A stretch of DNA of 20,000 nucleotides from IMG/VR virus record IMGVR_UViG_2788500588_000003, one strand, 5' to 3'. The notes below the pieces were generated by a model, which was given only the letters and a program-made list of their open reading frames with translations, was not told the DNA's origin and made no database searches. The position numbers and the translations under genes were made by a program. Below are positions 2,957-18,823 of the stretch, in pieces. The first letter of the stretch is position 1, and each line of letters opens with the position of its first letter. The DNA is from an uncultured virus (IMG/VR IMGVR_UViG_2788500588_000003) (lineage: Duplodnaviria; Heunggongvirae; Uroviricota; Caudoviricetes).

Positions 2957-3397
2957 TTATTGCACTATCATCTGATTCAAAATGTCATTTCTAACCCTAA
3001 ATATTGTAGTGCTAGATAATCTCATATGCTTACCAATAGCACGCATGCTATCACCATCCAGCAATCTATGGAGGACCTCAATCTCCCTGTCTCCGGTTAC
3101 TAGTGGTATACGCACTTGCACTTCCGCAATCTTTTGCTCATATTCCTTAATGCGATAATTAAGTGCATAAACTCTGCGTTGTACTTCTGTATACACTGGA
3201 TCACTTGTACCTCCACTTGCCTTCGGCAATGTTGCCTCAATACCATACATAGCCGTTTTCGCCCCAATGTAACTGTTATTATCAACCTTTGCAACTGGCT
3301 GTCTTGCTTCTTCAATGGTTTCAACCATCCATCGATAATTTTCAATCCACTGAAGTAAATTCTCTTTAGTTACTTTAATTTGCCCTTGTTTGCCCAT
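2957..3397 (-). CDS. Late-gene transcriptional activator, ArpU/RinA-like with C-terminal HTH
   Basis: Last gene of the early operon; TAMYGIEATLPKA..SDP motif; C-terminal HTH LDGDSMRAIGKHMRLSSTTIFRVR; RBS AGGAGG. Confidence 0.8.
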   Translation of the reverse strand: MGKQGQIKVTKENLLQWIENYRWMVETIEEARQPVAKVDNNSYIGAKTAMYGIEATLPKASGGTSDPVYTEVQRRVYALNYRIKEYEQKIAEVQVRIPLVTGDREIEVLHRLLDGDSMRAIGKHMRLSSTTIFRVRNDILNQMIVQ

Positions 3398-3415
3398 TAG
3401 GTTTGCCCTCCTAAG

Positions 3416-6582: not shown

Positions 6583-7089
6583 TTAAAATGGTAAATCATC
6601 CTCACTAACCTCAATCGGTCCCTTACTATTAGCAAATGGATCTTCATCCACTCTCGTATAACTTGGCTGGTTATTATTACCGCCATAATTGCCCTGTGGT
6701 GGATTTTGATTCGTTCCACCTGTATTTGTACTAGATTGATAGTTTGGTGTGCTCTGTGCGCCTCCTGTGCTGTTTCTTGGCTCTAAGAATTGGATGCTGT
6801 CTGTTACAACGTCTGTTGTAAAAACACGCTTACCATCCTGCCCCTCATAGCTGCCTGTTTGGATTCGCCCTTCCAAACCTATTAAATTACCTTTCTTCAT
6901 GAAGTTGGCTAGATTCTCAGCTTGTTTACGCCATGCCATACAAGGGATGAAATCTGCCTGTTGCTCCCCTTCATTTTTGAATGGTCTGTTAACTGCCACT
7001 GTGAAGCGACATGATGCAATTCCGTTCGGTGTGTAGCGTAATTCAGGATCTTTTGTAAGTCGGCCAACTAAAACGACTCGGTTAATCAT
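6583..7089 (-). CDS. ssb: Single-stranded DNA-binding protein
   Basis: [20 protein letters not shown]... and acidic DDLPF tail. Confidence 0.98.
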
Positions 7090-8270: not shown

Positions 8271-8302
8271 CCCTTCACCCTCCATCAAGGGGCTGTTGCC
8301 CC

Positions 8303-9127
8303 TCACTGATTTAAAATTGCATTGAATTTACTCAAGCGACCTTTAGCGATTTCTCTACGAAAACTAGTAGCCTCATTTTTAACTGGTTGCGACATTTCGA
8401 TTAATCTATCAGGTATCCTCTTGCCTATTTGCTCTGGTAAATCTTTTGGATTGAGATTTGATGTTGCTAGAATAGGTTTTTTTCTACGACTACGGCCGTC
8501 AAATATTTGGAACATAGTTTCTAGCACCCAATCACTTATTTTTTCTGCCCCTAAGTCGTCGATAATCAACAAGTCACATATCATCAATGCTTTCATAATC
8601 TGCTGTTCACTCTCGTTATTGTCGCGATTGAAAGTAGCTTTGATTTTGCTTAGTAACTCCGGCATGGATATGAAAACTATTACCTTACCTTGAGCAGTTA
8701 AATAATTGTGTACTGCTGCAGCTAAATGGGTTTTACCATTCCCTACATCGCCCCACAACAAGAGAGATTCAGCGCCAAATTCTTCGAAATGTTCAGCGTA
8801 ATATTTAGCTGCCTTAAAAGCTTTTTCAGATCCTTGCCGCATAAGGAAGTTTTCAAAACTAGCATTCAAGTATTTATCACCAATATTACTGATAGAGAAT
8901 AAAGTGCGTACCTCATTTTCTTCTTTGGCTCGTATCAAACGTTCAACCTCTGCCTTTTTAATGTCCTGCTCACATTGGCATACAGGTTGCACCCAACGAG
9001 TTCTACCAAGGACCTCAACTGGAATCGCCTTGATTTCATTTCCGCAATGACTGCATATTTCGCTAGAGTGAGAAGCCGTCATATTCTTCGTTACTATGTC
9101 GTTCATAGTTTTGGCTATTCCTTGCAT
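8303..9127 (-). CDS. DnaC/IstB-like helicase loader ATPase
   Basis: N-terminal CxxC..CxC, Walker A GDVGNGKT, Walker B LLIIDDLG, TSN; follows the initiator. Confidence 0.93.
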   Translation of the reverse strand: MQGIAKTMNDIVTKNMTASHSSEICSHCGNEIKAIPVEVLGRTRWVQPVCQCEQDIKKAEVERLIRAKEENEVRTLFSISNIGDKYLNASFENFLMRQGSEKAFKAAKYYAEHFEEFGAESLLLWGDVGNGKTHLAAAVHNYLTAQGKVIVFISMPELLSKIKATFNRDNNESEQQIMKALMICDLLIIDDLGAEKISDWVLETMFQIFDGRSRRKKPILATSNLNPKDLPEQIGKRIPDRLIEMSQPVKNEATSFRREIAKGRLSKFNAILNQ

Positions 9128-9977
9128 CTCGTTGAGCCTCCTTCATTTTCAACTGCAATTGCTGATAAGTAGTGATCATGTCTTTACGCCAGTTGATTAA
9201 CGTACCTTCTGCATATTTAATTTTGTTACGAGCATTGTTTAATACTGCATTTTGTAAAGCAGCTAGGATTAGATCCACATCTTTGTAATCATCCAAGATG
9301 TAACCAAGGTGTTCAGCTATTGTTGGAAGAACAGGTGTAATGTTTTGATTTGTAAATTCAACTAATCTAGCAAAATCATATTGAGAAGAAACCGACTGAC
9401 TACTCTTTTGTTCTTGTTCTTTTTCTTCTTCTCTTTCTTGTTCTTCTTCTTGTTCTTGTTCTTCTTCTTCCCTATAGTCTATGGAAGTGGTATTGATATG
9501 GTATGGATACGGTATCGAACCCTCGCCATTACTAGTGTTAAGTACTTTTGGCTCACTTTTTTCTTCTAACAGTATTGATACGGTATCGATACGGTATCCT
9601 AACTGTTCCAAAGAGGTTACATAGCTTCTTACAAAAGGTATATGCTTCACAGCAAGCAGCTCTTTTTCGATACATTTTTTCACTTTCGGTGAGTTGATAA
9701 AGTTGTACTTTGCCCAGTTATTTAACATGATTTCTTTTGTTGATTCGTTGTAAGTGATCTTTCCATACTCTACGAACCTTTGTAGTAGCTTCTGAACCGT
9801 TTCTCGGTTATATCCTGTGTGCATTTCTATGACTCTATATGGCAATTCGTAGATGCCACATTGTGTTGTATTGCCATTCGTCATCAAATACAGATAGAAG
9901 TATTTCTCCTCTGGTGTAAGATCCAATACAAAGCCGTCATCCCAAAACGTTGTGTGTACATTTCTGTATTTAGCCAT
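9063..9977 (-). CDS. Phage replication initiator (N-terminal wHTH, C-terminal DnaD-like domain)
   Basis: FWDD..LTPEEKYFYLYLMTN..TTQCGIY; C-terminal KYAEGTLINW; internal iterons. Confidence 0.9.
   Translation of the reverse strand: MAKYRNVHTTFWDDGFVLDLTPEEKYFYLYLMTNGNTTQCGIYELPYRVIEMHTGYNRETVQKLLQRFVEYGKITYNESTKEIMLNNWAKYNFINSPKVKKCIEKELLAVKHIPFVRSYVTSLEQLGYRIDTVSILLEEKSEPKVLNTSNGEGSIPYPYHINTTSIDYREEEEQEQEEEQEREEEKEQEQKSSQSVSSQYDFARLVEFTNQNITPVLPTIAEHLGYILDDYKDVDLILAALQNAVLNNARNKIKYAEGTLINWRKDMITTYQQLQLKMKEAQRDARNSQNYERHSNEEYDGFSL
9490..9599. repeat. Iterons, probable phage replication origin
   Basis: Two blocks (9490-9518, 9572-9599) of 11-bp units GTATnGATAYG inside the initiator gene, next to a TTCTTG/TTCTTC tract (~9405-9470). 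Confidence 0.8.
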
Positions 9978-9992
9978 TTGCCCTCACCCCTC

Positions 9993-10403
9993 CTAGTACG
10001 TTTTAATCGGCTCCCAATCGTTCGCGTAAGCAGCCTCATTAAATTTATCTACTGGCATATCAATGTTGACTGGCTCATATGTTTCAAGCCATTTTGCGAC
10101 GTCGTAGCTGATAAAAGCTCTATCACCAAATTTTTCATGCATGTATGCCTTATGTGCCTCCGAATGTGCTATTACTTCATCTATTTCTGGTTGCCCTGGC
10201 TTTTGACGATCATTACGAACAATGATGAAAGCATCTTGAATATCATCCATCGTTATATCACCATCTGGATCACTGAAATCTGCTACATCAATATCTGCTG
10301 CAAGGTAACGTCCTTCTTTATCACGATGTTTTAATACAATGACAGGAACAGTAGAAATAATTTCATCCTCGCCACCGAAGATGTTTTGTTGAAATATTTG
10401 CAT
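9993..10403 (-). CDS. Hypothetical acidic phage protein
   Basis: RBS GGAGGGTGA; operon context. Confidence 0.8.
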   Translation of the reverse strand: MQIFQQNIFGGEDEIISTVPVIVLKHRDKEGRYLAADIDVADFSDPDGDITMDDIQDAFIIVRNDRQKPGQPEIDEVIAHSEAHKAYMHEKFGDRAFISYDVAKWLETYEPVNIDMPVDKFNEAAYANDWEPIKTY

Positions 10404-12069: not shown

Positions 12070-14097
12070 TTAAATTGCCTCCTTAAGTATTGGTTGTTGA
12101 CCTTCGACTTCAACTCGTAACTGCTTGTCCTTCTCTGAAACTACTAAACTAATAAGTTGAGTATCCACATCAATAAACTTGGTTACAGCCTCGGCATTAT
12201 CCACGAAAATAGGTGCTTGGATACCGAAATGAGCAGATAGTGTATTGATGATGTCTAGGCCGACATTGATTTTCGCTGCATTGTTAAGGCCTGTGCCGTA
12301 TGGTACACCCTTGAAAGTTGTTTCACATACCTCATTTAAACCGCCATTTACTTGTGTATCAAACAGTTTGAAACGTGCATATTTGAACTTGCTATTAATG
12401 CGTTCCGTTAGCATGTTTACCTTTGTACGAATAAATTCTTCTATTAAGAAGGTTGTTTGCTCTAGCTTTTCATACTCTTGAGCAAGTTTTACTTGCTGAT
12501 CTTCCAGCTCGATAATGCGTTCCTTACTCGCTTCAATATTTGCGTGTTGAGCAATAGCGCTATTGCACTCTTTGCGCTCAAGATTGAGCTTATCAATTTC
12601 TTCGTCGATACCAGCAACTGCCTCGTAAGCATGCTCGTTTAACTGTTTAATTTCAGCCTGCAATGCTTCTATTTGTAAATTAATAGATTTATATTCATCA
12701 GTCGTTGTAACGTCCTTCACTGATGATTGTGCTGTTTCAAGTGCCTTTTGAGCTTTCTTCAACTCTTTGTCTTGTACCACTAAATCATCTTGATACTTGT
12801 TCATTTCTGCTAAAATGACATCATGTTCATTATTTAAGGTAGTTAAGCGTGCATTTAATTCAGCAACCTTTTCCCTACGAATGCCACCTTCACGTTGAAT
12901 ATCTTTCAAGCGAATTGTTTTAAATTCATTAAACTGTGCTTGAGCTTCATTACGAGCAGCCTCTACTTGTTCAATAGGTAAAGATTGCTTACATGTTGGA
13001 CATTCACAGTTATCTTCAAAATGGAACTGTTCTTTTTCTACTGCAAAATACTTCTCACGTAGATGGTCCATCTCTTTCGTTAAACGTCCGATTTCATCTT
13101 GTATACGATTAGCTTCATCTACTTTAAATTTCCGATTGTTATCAGCCTGTTGCAGTTTGCTATTAATGATCTGAGTGTTTCCTTGAACTTCTTGCAACTT
13201 GGCTTGAGCCTTATACACTTCTTGCATACTATCAGCTTCGAATGAACGTTTGATATCACTAAGTTTCATTTCTAACTCTAGTAACTGGCGCTGTTTATCA
13301 AGTACTGATGCACCGTTCTTCACGCGGATTTTTTGTTCCTGTAATTCCTCAATATTCGCCTCAATCTTAGACACCTGTTGACGCATTGTTTCAACATCTA
13401 CCATTGTTTCTGGCATCATTTTATTGATTTCATCAATACGTACTGGAATCTTCTCCAGTTCTTCATTGATGTGCTTTTTCTTGCTGGCAATGATTTTCTT
13501 CATATCCTCTAGCGACTTGCCATTTAATAAGTCGTTCAGTTTTACTAGTGAAGCGTTAGATGCGATTACTTCCTCGTCTGAAGTATCACCGCATATTTCT
13601 AAAAGTAGCTTACGTTTATCCTGCCATTTCATCTGGTTAAAATAAGTTGGTGATGTTAAAAGTTTGAACACTTCTTCTTCAACGATTTCAGCAACTTTCG
13701 CTGTGTACTCTTTCTTATTTAGAGGTACATCATTTACCGCGTAATCTACGGTATGGCCTGTAAATTCTTTGTTGGCAGCACCACGTTTTTTAGTCCAAAC
13801 CTCTTTGTAGATTTTCTTTAAAGTGATTGGTACTCCATCTACTAAAAATGTTCCTTCGACTGTATGCTCGAGGTTATGTTGTTCGGATCCATCACCATTT
13901 AATGTTTTAATAGCAAAATCCTTTTTGTTGTTGCTGTCTTTATCAAACAGTAGCCATAAAAACGCATCAAACGTTGTTGTTTTACCTACCTCGTTATCAC
14001 CAAAAATCTGTGCGTTACCACCATCTAATTGAATGTCTAGCGATTTAATGCCCTTGAAATCACGTAGTTTTAATACAACTAACTCAATTTTCTTCAT
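12070..14097 (-). CDS. Rad50/SbcC-like coiled-coil ATPase (675 aa; start trimmed to MKKIEL)
   Basis: RBS AGGAGG before ATG 14097; DFKG, Walker A GDNEVGKTT, CPTC hook, Walker B IFVDNAE. Confidence 0.92.
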   Translation of the reverse strand: MKKIELVVLKLRDFKGIKSLDIQLDGGNAQIFGDNEVGKTTTFDAFLWLLFDKDSNNKKDFAIKTLNGDGSEQHNLEHTVEGTFLVDGVPITLKKIYKEVWTKKRGAANKEFTGHTVDYAVNDVPLNKKEYTAKVAEIVEEEVFKLLTSPTYFNQMKWQDKRKLLLEICGDTSDEEVIASNASLVKLNDLLNGKSLEDMKKIIASKKKHINEELEKIPVRIDEINKMMPETMVDVETMRQQVSKIEANIEELQEQKIRVKNGASVLDKQRQLLELEMKLSDIKRSFEADSMQEVYKAQAKLQEVQGNTQIINSKLQQADNNRKFKVDEANRIQDEIGRLTKEMDHLREKYFAVEKEQFHFEDNCECPTCKQSLPIEQVEAARNEAQAQFNEFKTIRLKDIQREGGIRREKVAELNARLTTLNNEHDVILAEMNKYQDDLVVQDKELKKAQKALETAQSSVKDVTTTDEYKSINLQIEALQAEIKQLNEHAYEAVAGIDEEIDKLNLERKECNSAIAQHANIEASKERIIELEDQQVKLAQEYEKLEQTTFLIEEFIRTKVNMLTERINSKFKYARFKLFDTQVNGGLNEVCETTFKGVPYGTGLNNAAKINVGLDIINTLSAHFGIQAPIFVDNAEAVTKFIDVDTQLISLVVSEKDKQLRVEVEGQQPILKEAI

Positions 14098-14111
14098 ATC
14101 CTTTGCCCTCC

Positions 14112-14169
14112 TGTGGTAGAATGATATAAATATTGTTTTTGCAGACCACTGTTCGCGCAGTGGTTTTTT
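14112..14169 (+). ncRNA. Antisense mini transcription unit (~40-nt RNA)
   Basis: TGTGG-TAGAAT (14112-14122); terminator ACCACTG/CAGTGGT (14145-14164) plus T-tract. Confidence 0.6.
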
Positions 14170-14287
14170 ATTTTGATGGATAACCACCAATCTACTTACA
14201 AAACTGTCGTCGCAACTGGGGCCTATCGGCTGTCGCTCGCAAATGGTCATGGCGTACTGTGCTAGGTTTTTTAAATAGATTGCTAAT

Positions 14288-14373
14288 CCCATCAAGCAAC
14301 TTACAGTGGCAAAGCATAACCGTAGGGAGACGGTGCTGTAAGCTGCTTGACGAGAGCGAGATAACTCTCGCAA
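14288..14373 (-). other. Structured RNA element: 19-bp stem with inner hairpin and an overlapping alternative hairpin
   Basis: Arms 14288-14306 / 14336-14354 pair on the - strand with three G-U pairs. Confidence 0.65.
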
Positions 14374-14384
14374 ACGTCAAAACT

Positions 14385-14450
14385 TGTGATATAATAGATT
14401 TGTATATGTTGTCTCGCTGTTTAATCTTCGCTCGATTAAGCAGCTTTTTT
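14385..14450 (+). ncRNA. Antisense mini transcription unit (~50-nt RNA)
   Basis: TGTGA-TATAAT (14385-14395); terminator GCTGTTTAATC/GATTAAGCAGC (14416-14444) plus T6. Confidence 0.65.
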
Positions 14451-14538
14451 ATTGCCATTTAACTTCTCCAACACCCTCTTATCACAGAAGAAATGTACAT
14501 ATATTAACCTCTGTTTCAATGTCATGTGTCGCCACGCT

Positions 14539-14781: not shown

Positions 14782-15305
14782 TTAATAAATCCTACCTTTT
14801 GAAGATATTTGTAATGGTCCATCCAAACCCCTGTGTAACTAATCCCAAGGTGCTCTGTGGTTACAGCAATAAAGTTAGCCAGTGCTGTAGCTGCCTCAAC
14901 CGCCTCTTCGATCATGTCCATAATGTTTTTTCGCTCATAATGCTCGATTGCATCACTTGGTTTGGCTAAGCTTGTACTAGTTATGGCATCTAAGGCTTCT
15001 TGGAGTTCTTCAATTGTTTTCTCACGTACACTACAGCGATGGAGGTCTACGTTTGGGCCGTTCAAGTAAATAGGTCCTGTTCCTGTGTACTCATGCTGCA
15101 CTGCTAAAGCAAGCTTCGGATTATCAAACCGATTAACCAGTGTTCTACTAATATCCGATGGCACTTTAGCACGGCCATTTTCATATCGAGAAAGCCGTTC
15201 CCTTCCAACACCTATGTCCAACCCGAGGCTCAATTGAGTTTCGCCACCCCTCAATTCCTTGATTACTCCCCCAACAGTATTTTCAGTGACATTCACATTT
15301 ACCAC
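14778..15305 (-). CDS. XRE-family HTH protein with C-terminal helical domain
   Basis: TQLSLGLDIGVGRERLSRYENG HTH; exact start uncertain. Confidence 0.85.
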   Translation of the reverse strand: MVNVNVTENTVGGVIKELRGGETQLSLGLDIGVGRERLSRYENGRAKVPSDISRTLVNRFDNPKLALAVQHEYTGTGPIYLNGPNVDLHRCSVREKTIEELQEALDAITSTSLAKPSDAIEHYERKNIMDMIEEAVEAATALANFIAVTTEHLGISYTGVWMDHYKYLQKVGFIK

Positions 15306-15376
15306 CCTTTCTATTAAATTAAGGTCACATTTCAGTCTAAAGTTAACTTGGTTGCAACCATCAAGTTTCAGTAATT

Positions 15377-15478
15377 TGTGTATAATAATGGTTAAGAGGT
15401 AGATTTGCCCCTACCTCTTAGATTTCTACTAGATTGGTAGTTTGATTTATCTTGAGGCCATTTGCCCTGGCCTCTCCT
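15377..15478 (+). ncRNA. Candidate antisense sRNA with two UUUGCCC-loop hairpins
   Basis: TATAAT 15381-15386; hairpins 15393-15420 (loop AUUUGCCC), 15426-15440 and 15454-15474 (loop UUUGCCC); 3' end undefined. Confidence 0.55.
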
Positions 15479-15833
15479 ATGCTCTTAATAATCTAAGTCT
15501 TTCATTTTCACTCACGTAAATACCAAGACGCGAGTTCATGTATGATACATTATTGTTTTTCCATGCCAACACTTTGTCCCGAGGATAACGAGCACTTAAT
15601 GCAAGACATTTTGGAAAACCATCCATTCGAATTATTTTTTCTACTGTTGGTAATTCGCAGTTGAATATTTTAGCTACATCTTCTTTTTTTAAGTTTGGTG
15701 GTAGAGAATTTTCGAATTTTGCTTTTTCTATCTCTCGTCCATCCTCTACACCCTGCTTATATGCTTTTTGAAGAAAGTCAACTAATTCTGCATTGAGTAA
15801 GGCGTCTTTTAATTCGTCGATAGTTAGATTCAT
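15477..15833 (-). CDS. Putative DNA-binding protein, Xis/AlpA-like winged HTH
   Basis: LKKEDVAKIFNCELPTVEKII...FPK...RYPRDKVLAW; RBS AGGAGG. Confidence 0.7.
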   Translation of the reverse strand: MNLTIDELKDALLNAELVDFLQKAYKQGVEDGREIEKAKFENSLPPNLKKEDVAKIFNCELPTVEKIIRMDGFPKCLALSARYPRDKVLAWKNNNVSYMNSRLGIYVSENERLRLLRA

Positions 15834-17809: not shown

Positions 17810-17826
17810 ATAGTGAGGTGATTATG

Positions 17827-18228
17827 ATGTTTAACCATAGATTAAAGGCTGCTCGGAAAGCCAAAAAACTTACGCAAGAACAGTTAGCCGGAAAACTTCA
17901 AACAACTAAAGGTACAATTAGTAACTATGAAAATGGACATAGCACGCCTTCGAACGAAATGCTTGTTTTATTATCAAAAATACTCGATGTTACAACTGAC
18001 TATTTACTAGGAGTTACCGATAATCCTAACCCTGTAGATTATAAATTAGCTGGAATCTCAGATGATGACTACAACAATCTAAGCACATACCAAAAAGAAG
18101 TTATTAATTTCTTCTTAACTAGAGAGAATTTGTTTTTTAAAAACCAACCAGAAAATTTACTTGATGCCTTGGAACAATTCGAAGTTTATTACGAGGTATG
18201 GAAAAAGCAACGAGAAAATAAGAAGTGA
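17827..18228 (+). CDS. CI/ImmR-like XRE prophage repressor
   Basis: LTQEQLA..TTKGTISNYENGHSTP...DVTTDYLLG; no S24 autoprotease domain; upstream of ImmA; RBS GAGGTG (start 17824 or 17827). Confidence 0.92.
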   Translation: MFNHRLKAARKAKKLTQEQLAGKLQTTKGTISNYENGHSTPSNEMLVLLSKILDVTTDYLLGVTDNPNPVDYKLAGISDDDYNNLSTYQKEVINFFLTRENLFFKNQPENLLDALEQFEVYYEVWKKQRENKK

Positions 18229-18305: not shown

Positions 18306-18319
18306 AGAACATATGTTTG
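18306..18319. promoter_or_regulatory. LexA/DinR (SOS) box
   Basis: AGAACATATGTTTG resembles the Bacillota consensus CGAACRNRYGTTYC; just upstream of the immA-like RBS. Confidence 0.75.
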
Positions 18320-18334
18320 CAAAAGAGGGATGTT

Positions 18335-18823
18335 ATGACGTTTGTTTATACTCATTTAGAAGATTACATTCGCGATTTATACACTAGTATTGGGGTAACT
18401 AAACCTTCCCAATTAAATCCGCGGATAATTGGCTCGAAGCTTGGCTTCACCGTAATTTACTTACCAATAGATTCAGTAAGTTACGACAATATAATAATCA
18501 TAGATTCAAGATTATCTAAGCAAGAACAATGGCAAGAATTTTGTCATGAATTAGGCCATGTAATCTCGCATTCTGGCAATCAAACAAAAACTCACCCTTT
18601 ATTTAGAGAGTATCAGGAATGGAAAGCTAATAATTTTGCGTTACAAGCTTCTGTTCCTACTTTTATGTTAAATAAAATTAGTCTTCCTATAGATGAAGAA
18701 TTGGCGATTATTAAAATTTGTCTACTTTTCAAAGTTGAATATGACTTCGCTGAAAAGAGACTGAATCATTACTTAAACAATCATTTTTTTAACAATTGTA
18801 CTCTAATAGAAAGGAGTTACTAG
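18335..18823 (+). CDS. ImmA/IrrE family metallo-endopeptidase (antirepressor)
   Basis: FCHELGH zinc motif and QEWKANNFA; RBS AGAGGGA before ATG 18335. Confidence 0.92.
   Translation: MTFVYTHLEDYIRDLYTSIGVTKPSQLNPRIIGSKLGFTVIYLPIDSVSYDNIIIIDSRLSKQEQWQEFCHELGHVISHSGNQTKTHPLFREYQEWKANNFALQASVPTFMLNKISLPIDEELAIIKICLLFKVEYDFAEKRLNHYLNNHFFNNCTLIERSY

Follow-up and report, generated by a model that had tools for sequence, protein, structure and literature searches.

The immunity RNAs C4 of phages P1 and P7 and CI of phage P4 pair through their loops with sites in the lytic transcript, including a ribosome-binding site; they are cut from the transcript that holds their own targets and control an antirepressor operon or transcription termination, and the C4 family is held in Rfam. 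OOP of lambda and sar of P22 are short RNAs with their own promoter, transcribed in opposition to the early lytic operon from a position immediately before the replication genes. The targets of the classical phage regulatory RNAs are an antirepressor or cII. In Firmicutes, RsaE/RoxS and RNAIII of Staphylococcus aureus are chromosomal small RNAs with C-rich loops, conserved across genera, which control metabolism or virulence. Here we describe a two-hairpin cassette at positions 15393-15479 of a DNA stretch of 20,000 nucleotides (nt) from an uncultured virus of the Caudoviricetes (IMG/VR record IMGVR_UViG_2788500588_000003), the whole of which is referred to as the window. The genes neighbouring the cassette have their closest relatives in Lysinibacillus genomes and in proviruses of IMG/VR, and the window represents a Lysinibacillus-type prophage. 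We consider, with a probability of roughly 0.55, that the cassette is the gene of a trans-acting antisense small non-coding RNA on the + strand, opposite to the early lytic operon, and this RNA could probably pair with the translation start of the replication initiator and with the ssb gene. A previous sequence-only reading of the window had proposed that one small RNA blocks translation of three lytic genes together, those for a late activator, a recombination ATPase and the replication initiator.

The cassette is composed of a hairpin, an 18-nt invariant linker and another hairpin. Its parts, preceded by a possible promoter element, are as follows.

15381 to 15386, + strand: TATAAT box, candidate −10 element of a + strand RNA; the first hairpin begins at the 7th base after the box.
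15393 to 15420, + strand: hairpin B', a perfect 10-bp stem (TAAGAGGTAG/ATTTGCCC/CTACCTCTTA), the 5' hairpin of the candidate RNA.
15422 to 15444, + strand: linker, its 18-nt core invariant in 27 of 27 aligned relatives; 21 of 23 nt identical with a segment of ssb.
15454 to 15474, + strand: hairpin A', a perfect, GC-rich 7-bp stem with the + strand loop UUUGCCC (GAGGCCA/TTTGCCC/TGGCCTC).
15475 to 15479, + strand: UCCUA tail; read on the lytic strand, it includes the upstream gene's stop codon.

Both perfect hairpins with TTTGCCC loops and the TATAAT before the first, as described previously, are thus present. The loop of hairpin B' reads AUUUGCCC on the + strand and GGGCAAAU on the lytic (−) strand, and the linker is mostly unpaired in the centroid fold. 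Together with the 3' arm of hairpin A', the UCCUA tail forms CCUCUCCUA, which is complementary to the target Shine-Dalgarno (SD) sequence GGAGAGG. In the lytic sense, the cassette reads [UAGGA] GAGGCCA-GGGCAAA-UGGCCUC, 3-12 variable nt, CAAACUACCAAUCUAGUA, 0-10 variable nt and (U)AAGAGGU(A/U)G-GGGCAA(AU)-C(U/A)ACCUCUU(A). It is intergenic (15305 to 15477), its overlap with genes being limited to the stop codon of the upstream gene. By eye, hairpin B loosely resembles a small hairpin at the start of the late regulator. A mini-open reading frame (ORF) from the AUG in hairpin A was ruled out, as the peptide length and the frame differ between copies and one variant has ACG.

The candidate RNA is like C4 and CI in that exposed loops would pair with the lytic transcript, adding an RNA layer beside the protein repressor. 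Unlike C4 and CI, it would come from the opposite strand, and its targets lie 5.5 and 8.7 kb away and serve replication. The analogy with these RNAs had been drawn in the sequence-only reading, and it stood with respect to complementarity between loops and ribosome-binding sites of the lytic genes, which was found at three starts and extends over 23 nt at the initiator. It did not stand for the covariance model or for the strand of origin: cmscan of the whole window against 4227 Rfam families (E <= 1) gave four matches, all of them weak and to microRNA (miRNA) models, at 1142-1230, with none at 15300-15500, and an RNA cut from the lytic transcript would need UUUGCCC targets on the lytic strand, which holds a single copy (97-103). 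OOP and sar are similar to the candidate RNA in position and in direction relative to the early operon, and the candidate, too, would form a cis duplex with the early transcript. The action of OOP and sar is confined to the gene that each overlaps, whereas the cassette overlaps neither coding nor start region of a gene that it would control and has its best complementarity to distant genes, so that it would act in trans. With RsaE/RoxS and RNAIII the candidate shares several hairpins and C-rich loops (UUUGCCC and AUUUGCCCC in the cassette) able to pair with G-rich SD regions; unlike them, it is phage-borne, confined to one genus in the genomes searched and furnished with two long target-derived segments, and no RsaE/RoxS model of Rfam matched the region at E <= 1. 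Literature listings and the opening parts of abstracts contained nothing on a two-hairpin element of this kind.

The canonical cassette was found in 17 of the 22 relatives collected in the first round, divergent two-hairpin forms with other stems and GGGCA(A) loops in three, and none in two. Six of 23 further loci, collected by protein profile, carried it, and more distant relatives with enough upstream sequence were without it. Exact hairpin A is present in 48 IMG/VR contigs. A covariance model matched 18 of 49 Lysinibacillus species genomes, with 1-4 copies each and three in the genome to which L002 belongs, and three of the 151 genomes in a family sample, all three being Lysinibacillus genomes already found; megablast, blastn and tblastn searches of the region and the neighbouring regulator against an annotated phage collection gave no match. 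For analysis of covariation, 73 cassette copies (53 distinct rows) were compared at 17 stem pairs. Pairing was retained in 98.2% of cells and six of the 17 pairs were changed on both sides; none of 500 shuffles reached any of five measures, and slid controls gave only 0-1 pairs with two-sided change. Hairpin A' carries two-sided changes in four of its seven pairs among variants. At hairpin B' an A-U/U-A pair is swapped in 22 of the 53 distinct rows (GGUAG/CUACC to GGUUG/CAACC), and G-C is replaced by U-A in two rows. Other compensatory forms are GGUUU/AAACC and the conversion of GGCCA/UGGCC to GGCGA/UCGCC, GGUCA/UGACC or GGCUAA/UUAGCC. Throughout these compensated stems the loops stay constant as GGGCAA(A/U). 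Base pairs are hence kept by compensatory change in independent copies, as expected for a structured RNA on either strand. These observations altogether indicate a conserved structured element, in which the stems covary, the loops are conserved and the structure is under selection. A decayed cassette was also observed: one sequence, present in a provirus record and in a genome (L189/L199), has lost hairpin A, and its hairpin B loop has become GGGACAAAU. The phage concerned retains an intact initiator start motif (L135).

The flanks of the cassette are mosaic. On both sides the sequence switches abruptly where the cassette ends, and several contexts unrelated to one another were found upstream as well as downstream; the downstream gene is an HTH_3 regulator in three of three contexts tested, and two genes upstream gave weak HTH_17 matches below Pfam's cut-off. 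In every case the cassette is flanked by an early gene upstream and by the regulatory region of an HTH_3 gene, as could be expected of a punctuation mark in the lytic transcript (terminator, attenuator, antitermination or RNase processing site) that would separate the immediate-early genes from the HTH_3 regulator and the downstream recombination and replication genes. A pair of hairpins in tandem within an early operon is reminiscent of the nut and put sites known from lambdoid phages. Punctuation is nonetheless very improbable, as it leaves unexplained the 23-nt matches to the initiator start and ssb as well as the presence of GGGCAAA at translation starts; on the lytic strand, U-runs are missing behind both hairpins, and no Rfam family matched the region at E <= 1. 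Intrinsic terminators on the lytic strand were ruled out by this lack of U-runs.

The pairing capacity of the predicted antisense RNA was then analyzed. The + strand RNA of 15393-15479 was cofolded with each of 32 lytic translation starts, and net energies were compared. The initiator start was the sole outlier, with −29.1 kcal/mol against −12.9 for the next. The late regulator (−8.6 kcal/mol) and the SbcC-like ATPase (−8.4 kcal/mol), which offer only 7-8 nt seeds, stayed within the background of the 32 starts; the supposed joint block of three lytic genes thus overstates the prediction, which singles out the initiator. A lytic-sense control RNA gave no outlier, the best value being −9.2. By scanning the whole lytic strand (1310 windows; mean −5.0, standard deviation 3.1 kcal/mol), the initiator start was ranked first (−29 to −31 kcal/mol, z about −8) and a site within ssb, absent from the sequence-only reading, was ranked second (−21 to −22 kcal/mol, z about −5.3).

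9973 to 9995, − strand: translation start of the replisome organizer, UAGGAGGGGUGAGGGCAAAUGGC, the strongest predicted trans target; 20 of 23 nt identical with 15457-15479, as recomputed here.
6724 to 6746, − strand: site in the ssb coding region, CAAACUAUCAAUCUAGUACAAAU, the second predicted trans target; identical with the linker at the 21 of 23 positions given above.

Because the linker reads SNYQSSRN in the ssb frame, it is, as judged from its sequence, a copied ssb fragment. Related ssb genes differ from it at 2-4 of 23 positions, and its core is the invariant one of the aligned cassettes. From the identities with the initiator start and with ssb, the cassette appears to be built of pieces mirroring two replication mRNAs. 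The + strand is favored as the RNA strand because only an RNA from the opposite strand turns identity with two separate lytic mRNAs into pairing.

The initiator part of the cassette was found to recur at the starts of other genes. A 20-nt start motif, GGAGRGGNNAGGGCAAATGG, occurs 95 times in IMG/VR, 45 times in hairpin A and 50 times at gene starts; the latter copies precede six unrelated N-termini (MAKYR/MAKFR..., MGIIRVAK..., MAEITWIK..., MADNKKYY..., MAERNFKG... and MAGIYRER...) and follow many different upstream sequences. The start motif and exact hairpin A occur together in 41 of 48 start-motif contigs and 41 of 48 hairpin-A contigs, counts that are not independent. Five of the seven motif-only contigs were examined, and a variant cassette was found in one (L190), a decayed one in another (L189) and no cassette-like match in three. 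The motif is missing from the ordinary initiator starts of two phages that lack a cassette but encode homologous initiators (63% and 72% identity). Variants of hairpin A share central dinucleotides with variants of the start motif (CG in L221, TC in L217), the other arm being compensated, and the initiator start of L005 is the variant CGGGCAAUGG, the extra C of which is also present in both L005 hairpins. L097 and L099 have the 20-nt motif at the starts of two adjacent genes, at a distance of 411 nt (positions 401-420 and 812-831).

Conserved boundary sequences are known at module junctions of mosaic temperate phages. Like the cassette and the start motif, they are short conserved stretches between unrelated flanks, located at gene starts; they are not expected to form compensated hairpins or to be copied into a separate intergenic cassette, and this element does both. 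In the cassette as well as at the initiator genes, mosaic breakpoints coincide exactly with the edges of the 20-nt motif, and both the initiator piece and the SNYQSSRN-encoding ssb piece retain the orientation of their source genes. Such an arrangement, together with the neighbouring pairs of motif-bearing genes in L097 and L099, would be left by a recombination patchwork, in which an initiator-start piece was joined to an ssb piece, the 20-nt motif being a module boundary and the whole having no RNA function of its own. We regard this origin without function as unlikely. A neutral remnant should decay, as the clearly decayed copy L189/L199 illustrates, but cassettes are near-identical beside flanking genes at 72-99% protein identity; compensatory double changes are found in both stems, and the linker is invariant whereas real ssb genes vary.

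The loop sequence is enriched throughout the window. TTTGCCC occurs eight times on the + strand of the 20 kb (3379, 3389, 3402, 9709, 9977, 14102, 15404 and 15461) and once on the − strand; the recount gave the same positions as the sequence-only reading, and the GC content, assumed there to be about 36%, was computed as 36.9%. Dinucleotide-preserving shuffles, with both strands summed, gave a mean of 2.67 copies (standard deviation 1.65, maximum 8), none of 200 reaching nine. In 400 kb of the chromosome of a related Lysinibacillus, which is not the window's own host, GGGCAAA was found at 0.079 per strand-kb; at this rate 1.6 copies are expected per 20-kb strand, and the Poisson probability of at least eight on one such strand is 2.4e-4. 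A Chi-like or orienting oligomer was ruled out, as GGGCAAA is not abundant in this chromosome. On the lytic strand, GGGCAAA lies on the starts of three genes, those for the phrog_1058/GerE-like regulator (three copies), the SbcC-like ATPase and the DnaD/DnaB_2-type replisome organizer, in agreement with the earlier placement of the motif. Between −25 and +6 of the start, GGGCAA was found at 3 of 21 called lytic starts of the window and at 2 of 333 host starts (Fisher one-sided p = 0.0017). This enrichment is observed, as are the structure, conservation, covariation and complementarities described above. In addition to the initiator start, the sites are as follows.

3379 to 3408, − strand: start of the phrog_1058/GerE-like (late) regulator with three GGGCAAA copies.
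14102 to 14108, − strand: GGGCAAA in the SD-AUG spacer of the SbcC-like ATPase gene; the site reads AGGAGGGCAAAGGAUAUG.
9709 to 9715, − strand: GGGCAAA inside the coding region of the replisome organizer (N-W-A-K-Y-N).

For the ATPase site, the location proposed previously was right, and its quoted sequence, ending in AAAGAUAUG, had one G missing. Three relatives (L002, L009 and L017) have GGGCAAA at the ATPase start arranged as in the window. At the start of the late regulator, the first GGGCAAA lies in the loop of a small hairpin, UUAGG-AGGGCAAA-CCUAA, which spans the SD and abuts the AUG; of 32 homologous loci, 26 have one or more GGGCAA copies no farther than 45 nt from the start, and the six without it include the five most distant. 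Among divergent relatives, the motif was found near the initiator and late-regulator starts at shifted positions: L306 and L307 have lost the long complementarity of the initiator, and GGGCAAA is still near its start (before the AUG in L306, at codons 2-4 in L307), and the late-regulator-like start of L307 also keeps it.

Some further hairpins and starts were noted during this survey. A hairpin, GAGGGGCAACAGCCCCUU, in which GGGCAA is part of the stem, lies on the − strand of the window at about 8290-8320, immediately ahead of a small gene's GGAGGG SD, and its conservation extends to at least ten loci. A hairpin of 9-11 bp with a GGGCAAA loop is located inside the gene upstream of the cassette in three relatives (L009:5331-5355, L016:3978-4002 and L019:4973-5001), where it encodes the protein motif ...VDVGQKRLFEWLRENG and has G-U pairs on the lytic strand. 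The longest ORF for the SbcC-like ATPase (window 12070-14373) opens with TTG at 14373, its profile match beginning near residue 81-95; a strong SD and ATG near 14097 mark the probable true start, and a separate ORF of 88 amino acids (14192-14458) overlaps the N-terminal extension.

Since GGGCAAA sits on the mRNA strand at translation starts, it could also be a protein site, the alternative named in the sequence-only reading: a phage or host RNA-binding protein would recognize GGGCAAA(U) in hairpin loops or near starts on the lytic (−) transcript and regulate translation of the initiator, the late regulator and other genes, the cassette then being a pair of high-affinity sites on the early mRNA. 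Several starts display the motif in small hairpin loops whose stems differ (in the window UUAGG/CCUAA, in L009 and L011 AUGG/CCAU), several initiator starts have GGUCA/UGGCU stems with G-U pairs, and hairpin A itself, in which the 5' arm contains the SD and the AUG is located at the 3' arm, resembles a translational operator. At the initiator, the start is kept as a 20-nt linear sequence, but the potential hairpin is not kept, its central two nt and 3' side being variable. The invariant ssb-like linker would have no role for such a protein, and no conserved candidate protein was found, the genes on both sides of the cassette being variable. The lytic strand folds with the better z-score (−3.7 versus −2.0 for the + strand). 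Two substitutions (L221 and L009 type) give G-U pairs only on the lytic strand, but more substitutions break pairs on the lytic strand than on the + strand. One of them, in L190, is G-U on the + strand and, on the lytic strand, abolishes the closing pair as well as the AUG. Taking these points together, we find protein recognition rather doubtful, if less so than the patchwork. Single substitutions that are G-U on the + strand but A-C on the lytic strand were found at seven site-types versus four of the reverse kind, and at five versus one when the outermost pairs were left out; these counts are not significant, and one contributor is the decayed copy L189. The wobble evidence leans to the + strand.

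Transcription of the + strand, transcription in the lysogen and a role in immunity are predictions. As to a promoter of its own, as known for OOP and sar, an AT-rich −10-like hexamer is present 1-8 nt from the hairpin in 51 of the 53 distinct right flanks, the TATAAT of the window being 6 nt before it. As to a terminator, a hairpin followed by a U-run past the cassette was detected on the + strand in 28 of 65 distinct left flanks and on the lytic strand in 12 of 65, and most of these 12 represent, by eye, a weak match far off in coding sequence. The + strand terminator-like hairpins belong to at least seven stem families with C-rich loops (CUGCCC, CUGUCC, AUGCCC and UGCCC), and are located in a non-coding spacer after the upstream stop codon.

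Several observations weigh against a + strand antisense RNA. The −10-like box is quasi-palindromic, matching on the + strand in 51 and on the lytic strand in 50 of the 53 distinct flanks, and the orientation of a promoter as judged from this box was dropped; no −35 or TGn element was found by eye in any flank family, and one flank family has a different hairpin at the expected position of the box. The window itself has no U-run after hairpin A' on the + strand. The terminator-like hairpin travels with one family of upstream gene, and a second, identical copy stands 20-30 nt ahead of the int start in L010/L011, L005 and L004.

L010, 1184-1197 and 4435-4448, and L011, 1184 and 4260: palindrome copies on the cassette side and on the int side, identical within each phage.
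L005, about 1425 and 5832, and L004, about 2713 and 5825: palindrome copies on the cassette side and on the int side, identical within each phage.

The sequence of this palindrome varies between phages with its palindromy retained, and an A-run precedes only the cassette-side copy; the extra hairpin may be a protein-binding palindrome. By means of the second copy, the early lytic transcript could pair with the 5' leader of int. A CI operator was ruled out, as no copy exists in the cI-cro intergenic region of L010, with other protein sites remaining as candidates. Furthermore, the cassette copies all belong to a single genus of related mosaic phages. In L004 the cassette is divergent, yet the phage's own initiator start is without the motif, and the initiator start of L008 has GGGCTAATGG. 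The likeness between the start motif and hairpin A possibly reflects only their shared status as module junctions at which recombination occurs. Four public runs examined, out of 21 listed, were all assembled contigs, those of isolates labelled as RNA containing contigs of 127-215 kb, and carry no information on expression, strand or ends.

The cassette is located in a 171-nt gap between the genes for a protein of 118 amino acids (15833-15477) and a regulator of 175 amino acids (15305-14778). The early and middle lytic genes are all on the − strand, from 17673 down to 131, in the order cro-like gene, second HTH gene, Bro-N antirepressor, small ORFs, HTH_17-like gene of 118 amino acids, two-hairpin cassette, HTH regulator of 175 amino acids, SbcC-like ATPase, RecT, hydrolase, replisome organizer (DnaB_2), DnaC-like loader, SSB, methylases, resolvase and phrog_1058/GerE-like regulator. 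The lysogeny genes are on the + strand.

17818-18228, + strand: HTH_3 repressor.
18317-18823, + strand: ImmA-like protease.
From 18825, + strand: integrase.

Between the cassette and the downstream HTH_3 or 175-amino-acid regulator gene, a palindrome, AAGTTAACTT, is located at 15340-15365 of the window and in the equivalent region of L047-L094; this spacer also has repeated elements, in the window an inverted repeat and in other contexts recurring ATTCC/GGAAT half-sites, and is probably an operator/promoter region. The weak Rfam matches at 1142-1230 fall on a long near-perfect hairpin and concern four animal miRNA models (best E = 0.008, far below gathering scores); they are spurious, the hairpin being probably a terminator.

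For the trans-acting antisense RNA, we infer the transcribed strand, promoter, ends, timing and effect as follows. An RNA of about 85-130 nt would start at or near the first hairpin and consist, from 5' to 3', of a hairpin with the loop AUUUGCCC, an unpaired 23-nt stretch, a hairpin with the loop UUUGCCC and the tail UCCUA. The 3' hairpin and tail would be complementary over 23 nt, from the SD through the AUG, to the start of the replisome organizer, and the unpaired stretch over 23 nt to the site within ssb. The C-rich loops would first touch GGGCAAA near the start codons, and pairing would then spread; the 3' hairpin and tail would open and cover the SD and AUG of the initiator mRNA, blocking ribosome binding. 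Both initiator and ssb mRNAs would probably be exposed to double-strand RNases, and phage DNA replication would be held down. At its own locus the RNA would be perfectly antisense to the read-through early transcript and could cut it in cis. It might serve as a second immunity layer in the lysogen, as a timer during infection or in action against superinfecting relatives.

More tentatively, the cassette might be an anti-replication RNA gene, complete in itself and exchangeable, that was put together from copies of the sequences it targets, namely the initiator start region, the ssb fragment and the start-codon hairpin, and is used for an RNA-based cross-immunity directed at replication and not at the genetic switch. 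Resident prophages would then silence their own replication module and that of related superinfecting phages. Such cross-immunity would explain why one 20-nt translation start is common to six unrelated initiator families, and also why some cassette carriers (L004 and L008) have an own start site that drifted from the motif.

Even if the RNA is not real, the element is a strongly selected structured sequence at a fixed place in Lysinibacillus prophages. Should the + strand RNA exist, a phage small RNA would act in trans in a Gram-positive host and be aimed at the replication genes for the initiator and SSB. Its build would be unusual, a mobile cassette of target-derived pieces with compensating stems, distributed among the 18 of 49 Lysinibacillus species genomes noted above. 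It would explain, in a testable way, why unrelated initiator genes have conserved one and the same translation-start sequence, and would provide a simple system for RNA-based immunity or exclusion between related temperate phages.

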